NCBI GenBank assembly: GCA_944389595.1
Contig: CALXMY010000002.1
Location: 150,338-214,337 of the forward strand
From: an uncultured Alphaproteobacteria bacterium
GTDB lineage: Bacteria > Pseudomonadota > Alphaproteobacteria > Rs-D84
Reading direction: 5' to 3'
DNA length: 64,000 nt
The position numbers and the translations under genes were made by a program. Of this stretch, positions 26,958 through 34,936 are shown in pieces (the stretch's first letter is position 1; each line of letters starts with the position of its first letter). The notes beneath the pieces were generated by a model. The model saw nothing but the letters and a program-made list of their open reading frames with translations, had not been told where the DNA came from and searched no databases.

Positions 26958-28253
26958 GTGAAAAAAATCTGGATTGGTTTTGCGGGTGTTTTTGTGCTGC
27001 TGGTTGCGGCATGTGATTTACAACCAAAAATATTGGCGTTGCCTGATACAGTTGGTGAATTTATTTCGTCGCGTTATCCGGCATTGTTGGCCGATCCGGA
27101 AACTGAACCAGAAATTTATAATGCCGCATCAATTGATTATGGCGTTTATGCATCGCCGACATTGTATGGCTCGGTTGGGAATTCTGATTATGTTGAATAT
27201 GCCAGTGTGAATGATTATATTGTTCCGCCACAAACGATCAGTGCAAGTGCCGCGGCAATGTATGGTGATGTGTCGTCTGTTGATTTTGGGGGCCAGATTG
27301 TAACCAGTCATACTGCCGGGGACGATTATTTGCGTGTACCAATGTATGGTGGAATGAAAACTGTGCAAACAACATCGGAAATAACAGTTGCCGCCGGTGA
27401 TACATTGTATTCATTGGCCCAGATGTATGGGACAACAGTTGATGAGTTGATAAATGAAAATAATTTATCTGCGCCGTTTACGTTATCGGTCGGACAAAAA
27501 TTAAAGGTGCCGGTGGAAACTGTTGCCAATGGTGTGCAAACTGTTACTGTGCCGGTTGCAGATGTGGATGTGGGCACCGCGACAAATACAAAAACACGTG
27601 TTGATTTAACGGAAATAACGGTTGCTGCCGGTGATACTTTATATTCTTTGTCACGGCGATATTCTGTTCCGGTCAATGATTTGGCGGTTATGAATAATTT
27701 ATCTGCGCCGTTTACGCTGTCGGTCGGGCAAAAATTAAAGGTGCCCAATTTGGCCGATGCACCGATTCGCACAACAAATGTGGTACAGGCCACATCATCG
27801 GGTACATCGACCGCCCAGCCAAAACAAAAAATTTCGTCGGACCCAACGCAAAAGCTACCGAAAATTAGCGCGCGTTCGTCATCAAAGTTTTCATGGCCGG
27901 TGCGGGGCAAGGTATTATCAGCATATGGTGCCAAGGGGGATGGTTTATTTAACGACGGAATTAATATTGCCGCTGTGCGGGGAACAGCTGTGGGGGCGGC
28001 CGAAAATGGTGTTGTTGCGTATGCCGGGAATGAAGTAAAAGGTATGGGAAACTTAATAATTATTCAACATTCTGGTGGATGGATGACCGTATATGCGCAT
28101 TTAGATTCAATGTCGGTACGTCGTGGAAACAAGGTATCTGTGGGACAAAAAATTGGCACAGTTGGTGAAACAGGCAAGGTTGATGAACCACAGTTACATT
28201 TTGAAATTCGTAAAGGAACCAAGGCGTATAATCCATCGTCTTATTTAAAATAA
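26958..28253 (+). CDS. nlpD: LysM-LysM-M23 peptidase lipoprotein (NlpD/EnvC-type murein hydrolase activator)
   Basis: Lipobox LVAAC; two LysM repeats (TVAAGDTLYSLA...LSVGQKLKVP); M23 domain GINIAA..G..V.A..NGVVAYAG...GNLIIIQH..G..TVYAHL. Confidence 0.75.
   Translation: MKKIWIGFAGVFVLLVAACDLQPKILALPDTVGEFISSRYPALLADPETEPEIYNAASIDYGVYASPTLYGSVGNSDYVEYASVNDYIVPPQTISASAAAMYGDVSSVDFGGQIVTSHTAGDDYLRVPMYGGMKTVQTTSEITVAAGDTLYSLAQMYGTTVDELINENNLSAPFTLSVGQKLKVPVETVANGVQTVTVPVADVDVGTATNTKTRVDLTEITVAAGDTLYSLSRRYSVPVNDLAVMNNLSAPFTLSVGQKLKVPNLADAPIRTTNVVQATSSGTSTAQPKQKISSDPTQKLPKISARSSSKFSWPVRGKVLSAYGAKGDGLFNDGINIAAVRGTAVGAAENGVVAYAGNEVKGMGNLIIIQHSGGWMTVYAHLDSMSVRRGNKVSVGQKIGTVGETGKVDEPQLHFEIRKGTKAYNPSSYLK
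27373..27745 (+). repeat. Near-identical tandem duplication of the LysM-coding module
   Basis: approx 27373-27510 and approx 27606-27745 share long identical nucleotide runs (aatttatctgcgccgtttacg...tcggtcgg.caaaaattaaaggtgcc). Confidence 0.7.
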
Positions 28254-28263
28254 TAAAAATGAT

Positions 28264-28300
28264 GTATGTGTATGAAGTTCTGCACATACAGCTTTTTTGT
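28264..28300 (+). terminator. Rho-independent terminator after nlpD
   Basis: tgtatgtg-loop-cacataca hairpin followed by gctttttt. Confidence 0.65.
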
Positions 28301-28344
28301 GTGAATAAAAGCCACACTTTATTTGGGAAATTTTACTGTTATAC

Positions 28345-28385
28345 AGCAATAAAAAAGCCACACTTCGCACAAGGCTTCGTGTGGC
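28345..28385 (-). terminator. Minus-strand intrinsic terminator downstream of tRNA-like element
   Basis: gccacacgaagccttgtgcgaagtgtggc followed by ttttttatt on minus strand. Confidence 0.6.
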
Positions 28386-28428
28386 ACTAAAATTTCTTAA
28401 ACTCACTGCGTTCGTTAACGAAATTTTG

Positions 28429-28567
28429 TGGTGGGCGCACAGGGACTCCCTCGCACGGTGTGGAACACCGGCTGCGGGGCATTCGTGACGATTTGACCAC
28501 GTTGCACTTGTCAAATCTACTCGTTGTCGAACCCTGAGGCAGGGTTCTCGTCCGGTTTGTCCGGACC
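28429..28567 (-). other. tRNA-Lys 3'-half-derived element (T-arm/acceptor mimic ending CCA with approx 80-nt insertion in T-loop); pseudo-tRNA or att remnant
   Basis: Ends ...gagtccctgtgcgcccacca, identical to last 20 nt of adjacent tRNA-Lys; upstream cagggttcga matches tRNA T-stem/loop 5' half; no 5' acceptor strand; sits between two minus-strand terminators. Confidence 0.5.
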
Positions 28568-28576
28568 AAAAAAATA

Positions 28577-28593
28577 AAACCGCGTTGCGGTTT
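28577..28593 (-). terminator. Terminator hairpin after tRNA-Lys (minus strand)
   Basis: aaaccgc-aac-gcggttt followed by T-run on minus strand. Confidence 0.55.
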
Positions 28594-28600
28594 ATATTTT

Positions 28601-28676
28601 TGGTGGGCGCACAGGGACTCGAACCCTGGACCCACTGATTAAGAGTCAGTTGCTCTACCAACTGAGCTATGCACCC
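28601..28676 (-). tRNA. tRNA-Lys (anticodon CUU), CCA encoded
   Basis: GGGUGCAUAGCUCAGUUGGUAGAGCAACUGACUCUUAAUCAGU...GGGUUCGAGUCCCUGUGCGCCCACCA cloverleaf; anticodon loop CUCUUAA. Confidence 0.9.
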
Positions 28677-28876
28677 GGGTCCACTTGAAATGTATCAATT
28701 TTTGATTGACTGGGGCAATTATAGCCCTTTTTTCAATAAATGCAAGGGCTTTGTATTTATTTGCGTGCCATGATATTGGGCATCCATACCTATGTAAACT
28801 TTGTTTTTTGTCTGATAGAATTACAGTGTTGACATGAAAGAAACTTTATACAACAAACCTACAAAGGAGAGAGAAA

Positions 28877-29488
28877 ATGAAAAAAATAGTTATATCAACA
28901 TTGGCTGTGCTGGTTGCATGTCCGGCATTCGCAGCAGGACGTAATCCAAACGCCAGTTCGTGGCAATTGTTTGGATTGGATCCGTATATTGGGCTGCGTG
29001 GTGGTGCCAGTTATACAAATTTGAATTATCGCTATAACGACCATCGGGAAACTGTATCTGATATGGCGTTCCAGGGCAGGGCCGCATTAGGATTGGAAAT
29101 ATGCGACACGGTACGTGGCGAAATTGAATGGTCTATATTCAGCAAGACAAAAGATACTGCGACATTTGGTGATATTAACGATGTTAAAATAGAAACCAAA
29201 ATGCAGACGTTGTTATGGAACATGTATTGGGAATTTGGCGAATATCACATTGTTCGTCCATTCTTTGGATTGGGTGCCGGTGTGGCATTTACCAATGTTA
29301 AACGCGAAGTGCCGGTTGTTGGTGACCACAGCGAAAGCAACACCCGTTTTTCAGCAATGGGCGCATTGGGTGTAACGTTTGATATGGAACGTTTCGCAGT
29401 TGATATCGCGGCACGTTATAATTATGTAGATATTAATTCCGGTTTACATAATTTCGGCGGTGATATCGGTATCAGATTTATGTTTTAA
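28877..29488 (+). CDS. Outer-membrane beta-barrel protein (OmpA-like/OMP_b-brl family)
   Basis: Signal peptide AFAA, alternating amphipathic beta-strands, C-terminal ...IGIRFMF ending in Phe. Confidence 0.6.
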   Translation: MKKIVISTLAVLVACPAFAAGRNPNASSWQLFGLDPYIGLRGGASYTNLNYRYNDHRETVSDMAFQGRAALGLEICDTVRGEIEWSIFSKTKDTATFGDINDVKIETKMQTLLWNMYWEFGEYHIVRPFFGLGAGVAFTNVKREVPVVGDHSESNTRFSAMGALGVTFDMERFAVDIAARYNYVDINSGLHNFGGDIGIRFMF

Positions 29489-34860: not shown

Positions 34861-34936
34861 GGCCAGATAGCTCAGTTGGTAGAGCAAGGGACTGAAAATC
34901 CCTGTGTCAGTGGTTCGATTCCACTTCTGGCCACCA
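34861..34936 (+). tRNA. tRNA-Phe (anticodon GAA)
   Basis: ggccagatagctcagttggtagagcaagggactgaaaatccct...ggttcgattccacttctggccacca; anticodon loop cuGAAaa. Confidence 0.9.

Follow-up and report, generated by a model that had tools for sequence, protein, structure and literature searches.

A TLR-like element behind tRNA-Lys in an uncultured gut alphaproteobacterium and its probable relation to the RtT RNAs of Escherichia coli

A 64,000-nt stretch of DNA from an uncultured gut alphaproteobacterium (the window; contig CALXMY010000002.1, positions 150,338 to 214,337) was found to carry an element of 138 nt directly behind a tRNA-Lys(CUU) gene. The element (28429..28566, minus strand; coordinates are those of the whole window) starts 35 nt past the end of the tRNA gene on the same strand and terminates in an exact copy of the last 20 nt of that gene. 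It is probably a divergent alphaproteobacterial member of the class of tRNA-linked repeats (TLRs) of E. coli, which is represented in Rfam by the family RtT (RF00391) and by rttR at the tyrT locus. TLRs were first described by Egan and Landy in 1978, as summarized in Stenum et al. 2021 (PMC8144298), and Rudd (1999) recorded 22 of them in ten loci of E. coli K-12 (PMC8144298). By the definition that goes back to Rudd, a TLR belongs to a tRNA or rRNA operon, where it directly follows a tRNA or rRNA gene in the same orientation; its 3'-terminal 18-19 bp match the 3' end of this gene exactly, and one to five copies occur per locus (PMC8144298). The window element takes this position, as do the elements of 24 related loci and the copies recovered from metagenomes; its tail is 20/20 identical to the tRNA gene including the CCA; and it is present in one copy in the window, while tandem second copies occur in some relatives. 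Thus, by the definition of the class, the element is a TLR. RtT-family RNAs have been reported throughout the Pasteurellaceae (PMC4986893), and the literature searched contained no report of TLRs beyond the Gammaproteobacteria, which does not by itself prove their absence there.

Anatomy and conserved fold of the element

A preliminary description of this DNA had placed a minus-strand element of about 140 nt past tRNA-Lys(CUU) and its terminator. ARAGORN and Rfam for the tRNA and a hairpin scan for the terminator bear this out, and the element occupies 28566..28429; a covariance model of its relatives (R1, see below) matches 28429-28565 with 118.5 bits. The description of its parts was equally accurate. 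The tail (28429..28448) is an exact 20-nt copy of tRNA-Lys positions 57-76 (GAGTCCCTGTGCGCCCACCA), consisting of the T-loop end, the T-stem 3' strand, the acceptor 3' strand and ACCA with the encoded CCA, and we estimate the odds of a 20-mer recurring by chance within 600 bp at about 1e-7. On the plus strand the repeat comprises 24 nt with one mismatch (28425-28448 against 28597-28620; CAAA against AAAA past the CCA on the minus strand). It therefore runs 4 nt beyond the CCA, and the copied unit is slightly longer than the mature tRNA end. The tail forms the 3' strand of helix P1, whose 5' strand (28550..28566) opens the element and here can also fold into the local hairpin GGUCCGG-ACAAA-CCGGAC, the 5' hairpin (GGUCCGG/CCGGAC) noted before. 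In the window copy P1 pairs GGAC (28553..28550) with GUCC (28446..28443), and the duplex of 5' strand and tail is predicted at -13.1 kcal/mol. There follow a GAG junction, the P2 hairpin GAACCCUG-CCU-CAGGGUUC and the dinucleotide GA (28527..28549), which together make up the conserved core motif GGAC-GAGAACC..GGUUCGA that is also found in E. coli RtT. The core includes the 10-nt CAGGGTTCGA (28536..28527), a repeat of the T-stem 5' half and T-loop start of tRNA-Lys, and the structured insert of about 80 nt in the preliminary description corresponds to the 78 nt between this repeat and the tail. This interval contains the P3 hairpin GAUUUGAC / GUCAAAUC with a 12-nt loop opening with a conserved ACAAG (28490..28517), followed by P4 (CCC:GGG) around a GCA/GA internal loop and the P5 hairpin CCGGUGU-UCC-ACACCG(U)G (28448..28478). 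The minimum free energy (MFE) of the whole element is -52.7 kcal/mol (z = -3.0), and none of 200 shuffled sequences was as good.

Relatives were identified with R1, a covariance model built from relatives and containing no E. coli sequence. Among 80 syntenic loci of Enterousia-like gut alphaproteobacteria, most of which have tRNA-Lys(CUU) near a LysM-M23 peptidase gene, R1 detected strong copies (above 43 bits) in 24, each directly 3' of tRNA-Lys(CUU) and on the same strand. A second tRNA-tail copy is located 156-191 nt downstream in about 20 of the 80 loci (280 nt in one). It follows the lineage's own variant of the tRNA, of which four occur (CCCTG[T/C]GCG[C/T]CCACCA), and the sequence between tRNA and tail copy is alignable across lineages. 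Metagenome contigs were scanned with a tail-independent pattern drawn from the P2 core only, and the copies that R1 recovered there follow tRNA-Lys(CUU), tRNA-Lys(UUU), tRNA-Val(UAC) and tRNA-Val(CAC). A longer variant, unreported by R1 and recognized by eye via its core motif, is found behind a CCA-less gene for tRNA-Lys(CUU) (L091) and behind one for tRNA-Thr(CGU) (L127). The core is conserved across these tRNA types and down to about 50% identity of the peptidase, and its unpaired junction nucleotides are invariant.

The tails match the tRNAs that they follow. The neighbouring tRNA could be recovered for 30 elements from outside E. coli, which span the four tRNA-Lys tail variants and Val tails; 20 of them are identical to it at 19/19 positions and 6 more at 18/19. 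In each case the stretch copied from the adjacent tRNA covers about positions 58 to 76, with one clear exception. This GC-rich copy behind tRNA-Lys(UUU) (L151, 580-833) has the tail CTGCGCGACC, which is like that of tRNA-Lys(CUU) and agrees with the adjacent tRNA at 15/19 positions; its terminator is duplicated exactly despite the mismatched tail.

The fold is supported by covariation. When a hand-drawn structure consisting of the closing helix, P2, P3 and P4/P5 was imposed on a MAFFT alignment, 83% of the cells paired and 50 were compensatory, compared with 19.6 +/- 3.3 in shuffled alignments; control structures slid along the alignment reached at most 50% pairing. With 31 sequences aligned to the model, 86.8% of the cells were paired, double-sided changes occurred in 15 of 24 pairs, and 95 compensatory cells contrasted with 32 +/- 5 in shuffles (reached in 0 of 500) and with slid controls of at most 51% pairing, figures that overstate independence since the alignment is model-fitted, the sequences are related and the controls leave some phylogenetic relatedness. 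P3 and P5 occur as many different stems in which compensatory series are visible by eye: all four P5 pairs covary, and all six modelled P3 pairs show compensatory changes somewhere in the family. P4 appears in the relatives as CCC/GGG, GGC/GCC, CGC/GCG or CAC/GUG.

Almost all copies show pairing between the 5' region and the tail. GGAC:GUCC, corresponding to tRNA positions 59-62, is paired in 97% of the cells, and farther 5' the pairing tracks the tail variant (GCACAG:CUGUGC vs GCGCAA:CUGCGC; UGGAC:GUCCA vs UGGGC:GCCCA vs GGCGC:GCGCC). Duplexes of a 5' strand with its own tail are more stable than those with foreign tails (-8.3 vs -5.0 kcal/mol; Wilcoxon p = 1e-6, uncorrected for relatedness). 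The 5' strand of the Val-linked copies is identical to the 5' acceptor strand of their tRNA (GGATGTT in L131, ATGTTT in L097). The statement in the preliminary description that the element has no 5' acceptor strand consequently holds loosely and for the window copy only; across the family the 5' end is complementary to the tail, and behind tRNA-Val it is the acceptor strand itself. These patterns suggest that the element RNA would in effect be the acceptor/T-stem minihelix of the neighbouring tRNA, with a conserved core in place of the T-loop.

Two subtypes can be distinguished, which differ in the 3' domain. The second subtype (L055, L064, L088, L047, L040, L082, L111 and L151) keeps P1-P3, while its deviating 3' domain reads ..ACGUAGYGAAAGGGGCCCAU-hairpin-AUGGGRAU..ACAGUCCC; decayed tails are found in several of these copies. 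The longer variant (L091, 14070-14317; L127, 1-172, with the tail beyond the contig end) carries a GNRA-capped insert in P2 (GGACGAGAACCCACAAAGCGAAAGCUUUGUCUGGUUCGAG..). In L074 (5689-5832) about 110 nt of extra sequence with a hairpin of its own are located between tRNA-Lys and the element, and the tail copy is 280 nt downstream of the tRNA instead of the usual distance of about 175. Most of the 80 loci returned by the metagenome pattern scan were coincidences in coding sequence and were discarded. The pattern GGACGAGAAYCC..GTTCG..AGT hits coding DNA by chance in L094, L101, L103, L106 and about 20 further loci, and in L104, L117, L143 and L169. Such coincidental matches include a gut-bacterial gene end (..VDENPSLWATMTFVEE) and thioredoxin-like 'VDENP' genes, which calls for caution in pattern-based searching.

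A neutral origin, in which slippage duplicated the tRNA 3' end together with the terminator and left junk without RNA function in between, appears extremely improbable. The joint repetition of tail and terminator in many relatives and the frequent loss or decay of copies would be expected of such a process. Conservation of the core across tRNA types and down to about half identity of the peptidase would not, and neither would invariant unpaired junctions, compensatory changes in 15 of 24 stem pairs or a resemblance to E. coli RtT.

Several other identities were examined. In agreement with the preliminary description, the element is not a tRNA: ARAGORN reports only two tRNAs in the window, and no RF00005 match was obtained at the element at E<=10. 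Rfam searches over the element, at the gathering score and at E<=10, returned chance matches only. The element is not a piece of a transfer-messenger RNA (tmRNA) either, as had also been stated, since ARAGORN detects no tmRNA in the window, Rfam has no tmRNA match at the element and position 70 of the tail is a C. A tmRNA or permuted tmRNA was likewise rejected for lack of ARAGORN or Rfam support and of G3:U70. It had come into consideration because the host is an alphaproteobacterium and GGUUCGAC resembles the D-loop analogue of tmRNA. An apparent mini-open reading frame (GAC-AAC-GAG-UAG) is not conserved in the second subtype. A T-box-like 'AAG specifier' in the P3 loop was dismissed because several tRNA-Lys-linked copies have GAG or GCG, and a true T-arm with an insertion (CAGGG:CCCUG) because relatives with a short P2 (L069, L071, L080) keep GAAC:GUUC and do not have CAGGG. 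Group II intron domain V, small ribozymes, retron non-coding RNA, REP/IS200-type ends and TnpB/IscB guide RNAs were also weighed and dropped, as no defining motifs or associated protein gene of these were seen.

Similarity to the RtT RNAs of E. coli

The E. coli K-12 tyrT-tyrV locus contains four RtT copies that score 133-137 bits with RF00391. Three of these follow tyrV as a tandem array, the fourth separates the two tRNA-Tyr genes, and one of the four is annotated as the small RNA RttR. The tyrT copies read ..GGGGAAGGAUGAGAAGCUUCGACCAAGGUUCGAC...GAGUAAUCCUUCCCCCACCACCA. In their plan, a 5' strand composed of acceptor positions 4-7 and the T-stem 5' strand is paired with a tail that equals tRNA-Tyr 58-76. 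Five further RF00391 copies follow the tRNA-Lys genes of the lysT-valT operon. The RF00391 core GGAUGAGAA-CUUCGA..AAGGUUCGA, closed by a helix with the tail, has its counterpart in the window element in GGACGAGAACCCUGCCUCAGGGUUCGA and GGAC:GUCC. Both groups thus share the motif GGA(C/U)GAGAA-C..GGUUCGA and a closing helix made with the tail, and cmsearch and cmscan alignments place the core motifs of the window family and of E. coli in register.

Model searches in both directions point to the same relation. In a search of the 4-kb locus, the four best matches of R1 are the RtT copies at tyrT, each over its full length. R2, a broader covariance model of 31 sequences with none from E. coli, returns the tyrT copies as its top four matches, full-length and with 17.1-19.6 bits (E 7e-6 to 5e-5 in 4 kb; next match 6.9 bits); the scores are weak and the E-values rough. 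In the reverse direction, the best match of RF00391 outside E. coli is a weak full-length one of 15.2 bits to a GC-rich relative (L107). Layout, covarying conserved structure, linkage to a tRNA gene, tail matching and similarity to E. coli RtT were all directly observed, and the shared layout, the shared motif and the weak reciprocal matches suggest distant homology between the window family and RtT.

Several observations weigh against this reading, in addition to the limited independence of the 31-sequence figures. RF00391 has no match at E<=10 in window positions 28200-28800 (601 nt) and misses eight other element-bearing loci, and its gathering threshold of 45 bits is not reached. Part of the covariance-model score comes from the generic CCACCA and GGUUCGA, and R2 does not detect the 5S-linked TLR rrB of E. 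coli. The constraint is not universal, as decayed tails (L040, L047, L082, L111), a truncated tail (L070) and a lost 3' domain (L084) occur. Wobble cells do not distinguish a functional strand (19 G-U vs 17 A-C). Finally, the window copy is a weak example of the end-to-end helix: CGGAC and GCCCA, its outer strands, form two mismatches, and the MFE structure favours the local 5' hairpin over the end-to-end helix.

Origin, turnover and putative expression

The preliminary description preferred to see in the element an attB/attP-type remnant, a reading which the comparison does not uphold. In this scenario a tRNA-Lys-specific tyrosine integrase left a recombination scar, or a remnant similar to a cis-mobilizable element (CIME), with the 20-nt repeats as attL/attR cores and about 150 nt of residue. 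The repeats do begin in the T-loop and run to the CCA, and att cores of tRNA-targeting integrases usually extend from the T-loop to the tRNA 3' end. However, the repeat length varies with lineage from 20 to about 120 nt without an evident fixed core, and an att duplication creates neither a 5' strand complementary to the tail nor, as in the Val copies, one equal to the acceptor strand. Patchy presence (about 25 of 80 loci), tandem and partial second copies of the kind that accretion of att sites would give, and the tail of L151, which matches its adjacent tRNA at 15/19 positions as if it came from another site, could all be accommodated by integration. A conserved, covarying body behind different tRNAs is unexpected of integrase arm sites. 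Pfam scans revealed no integrase or mobility gene between or beside the repeats, neither at this locus nor at three of the loci from the metagenome scan, whose neighbours are of the housekeeping type (S4, FabA-like, RlmN, MFS and aminotransferase genes). Within the window the repeats are 152 nt apart, and the open reading frames of at least 60 aa that cross this interval all run through the tRNA gene. Matches to 50,697 phage records (blastn) are confined to the tRNA, and the core pattern is absent from viral contigs. The 22 E. coli TLRs of the same architecture have never been tied to an integrase (PMC8144298). Taken together, a scar is very unlikely.

More generous, though still unlikely, is our estimate for a selfish, non-autonomous small element that spreads among tRNA genes at the RNA or DNA level, takes its ends from the target tRNA and confers no benefit on the host. 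The core stands behind at least four tRNA species with matched ends, and behind a fifth (tRNA-Thr) in the longer variant, yet neighbour Pfam scans show no associated transposase, reverse transcriptase or recombinase. The presence of the element is patchy, with tandem arrays, truncated copies and decayed tails, whereas within the Enterousia clade it is confined to a single syntenic tRNA-Lys locus, a distribution explained by vertical inheritance with loss. TLRs have remained without a demonstrated function for more than 40 years (PMC8144298), which would suit a selfish element; covariation points to an RNA fold under selection, but a fold would be required by a mobile RNA as well.

The turnover of the TLR-like elements is visible in their repeats. 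Many relatives have a further copy of the tRNA's terminator behind the element. The repeat comprises 64 nt in L089, where a 9-nt stub of a second copy remains, and in L043 and L055 it reaches into a second, truncated copy. In L112 a second copy stands in tandem. This pattern fits unequal crossing-over, conversion and deletion of direct repeats. The direct repeats of tail and terminator are probably homogenized by gene conversion or unequal crossing-over, which would account as well for tandem and truncated copies and for the many losses among relatives. A further-reaching idea, which we put forward tentatively and regard as doubtful, is that TLR/RtT is an old and widespread class of structured RNAs in Alpha- and Gammaproteobacteria, and possibly in bacteria with CCA-less tRNA genes (L091, L127), in which both ends are re-templated on the tRNA that is followed, so that the RNA carries the acceptor/T-stem minihelix of that tRNA. 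If this were true, tRNA ends would be actively copied onto the core, amounting to a new tRNA-targeted mobility or conversion, or the RNA would have a tRNA-specific function such as competing for end-recognizing enzymes or reporting tRNA transcription.

Transcription, processing and function of the element are proposed by analogy with E. coli, where three TLRs are read-through transcripts between dual terminators (PMC8144298). The tRNA-Lys(CUU) gene with its encoded CCA (28601..28676, minus strand; ARAGORN, and Rfam RF00005 with 73.7 bits) is preceded by a candidate sigma-70-type promoter, TTTACA-17-TATCAT (28770..28798, minus strand), which was recognized by consensus match only. A consensus scan found no other promoter-like site on the minus strand within 27800-29200, and none between tRNA-Lys and the element. 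tRNA and element are separated by T1 (28567..28593, minus strand), a terminator-like hairpin AAACCGC-AAC-GCGGTTT with a T-run. Of the related loci inspected, all but L091 and L127 have a hairpin and T-run here; in these two the element adjoins the tRNA directly. The 3' trailer (28351..28428, minus strand), which also occurs in the relative L019, consists of a weak AU-rich hairpin followed by T2, a terminator-like hairpin GCCACAC..GUGUGGC (28385..28357) with UUUUUU (28356..28351) on the minus strand. T2 begins 43 nt past the CCA of the element and is the second terminator that had been placed roughly 45 nt on; it was missed by the consensus terminator scan because its loop exceeds 8 nt. The element, apparently having no promoter of its own, would be transcribed from the tRNA-Lys promoter via read-through of T1, with a stop at T2; the absence of a promoter-like site between tRNA and element and the layout with two terminators would fit this route. 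Enzymes that process tRNA ends could then excise a discrete RNA through its tRNA-like end, and the level of the released RNA would track tRNA-Lys transcription. The alternative of an expressed tRNA-derived small RNA, which the preliminary description had put second, is accordingly the better of its two readings; it is favoured by the TLR/RtT layout and core motif, and expression would follow by analogy. That the released RNA is a protein-binding or decoy RNA coupled to growth rate is a guess in which we place low confidence.

The surroundings of the element show the following features. On one flank are genes for RecJ, a DHH phosphoesterase, LolA, TatC and the LysM-M23 peptidase, and on the other those for an outer membrane protein (OMP) of the beta-barrel type, a radical-SAM enzyme with a UPF0004 domain and GatB; no integrase, transposase or phage gene is located near the element. 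All relatives of the LysM-M23 peptidase in GTDB genomes belong to uncultured gut Alphaproteobacteria, several of them named 'Candidatus Enterousia'. The peptidase gene is convergent to the element, and its terminator-like hairpin (28263-28290, plus strand) is about 60 nt from T2; the two units finish within about 100 nt of each other. The 13-nt AAAAGCCACACTT occurs twice on the plus strand, at 28307-28319 and 28353-28365, 46 nt apart. The second copy is the T2 3' arm with the U-run, and part of T2 is thus duplicated just downstream. Eight near-identical strains from public metagenome assemblies have the same arrangement with 0-3 substitutions in tRNA and element; the extra differences of strain L004 are found only in the first bases after the peptidase gene, where the ungapped comparison is out of register. 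Two close strains (L006, L007) have C4 in place of U4 in tRNA-Lys (window position 28673), which turns the U4:G69 wobble into C:G, as well as a variable-loop change (28633), and their element differs at 28465 only, at the top of P5. The second tRNA of the window, tRNA-Phe(GAA) (34861-34936, plus strand), has no TLR-like element beside it; a covariance-model search of the window returned exactly one copy.

Comparison with known systems

If the assignment of the window element to the TLR class is right, an orphan RNA class of 45 years' standing is extended to a second proteobacterial class, behind several tRNAs and in gut alphaproteobacteria with reduced genomes. Deletion and overexpression of TLRs in E. 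coli have led to modest phenotypes (PMC8144298). The divergence of the new copies reveals a conserved four-helix fold in which the junction nucleotides do not vary and the closing helix mimics the acceptor/T-stem of the neighbouring tRNA, and both ends of the element track that tRNA. Comparative conservation of such kind argues for a function and supplies concrete features to mutate. The current Rfam RtT model misses the alphaproteobacterial relatives, and the family is thus probably under-annotated. Furthermore, where a partial tRNA 3' end stands beside a tRNA gene, an att scar of an integrase should not be assumed by default.

With the attL/attR repeats of P4-like and other tyrosine integrases and of CIMEs the window element shares a direct repeat of the tRNA 3' end that starts in the T-loop, with the tRNA intact on one side. 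It differs in having no integrase or cargo, a covarying interval, a 5' end that also matches the tRNA and a repeat of variable length. The resemblance to tmRNA and to minihelices lies in the acceptor/T-stem helix with its 3' ACCA, which is retained, with other RNA in place of the remaining tRNA body; the window element has no G3:U70, tag frame or pseudoknots, and the replacement is located at the T-loop instead of the anticodon-arm position.

The closest comparison is that with the TLRs of E. coli. The host there is an enterobacterium, in contrast to the uncultured gut alphaproteobacterium studied here, and the P3-P5 domain of the new elements cannot be aligned with the E. coli copies, which have ..UCGAGCG-AGCGAGA..GUUGC-hairpin..CCCGAAGGG.. 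where the window element has P3 and P4/P5. At tyrT only a spacer separates tRNA and element, whereas T1 is found between them in most alphaproteobacterial loci inspected, and the window element has no tpr-like open reading frame. In both groups the element directly follows a tRNA gene in the same orientation, occurs singly or in tandem and ends with 18-20 nt equal to the tRNA 3' end with its CCA. The RtT copies and the new elements also have in common that the 5' strand joins a part of the acceptor 5' strand to the T-stem 5' strand (GGGG|AAGG in E. coli, GCA|CAG in most relatives here), that the tail spans tRNA positions 58 to 76, and that the helix is two pairs longer, extending onto tRNA positions 59-60 with covariation (U:A59 for Tyr, C:G59 for Lys and Val).

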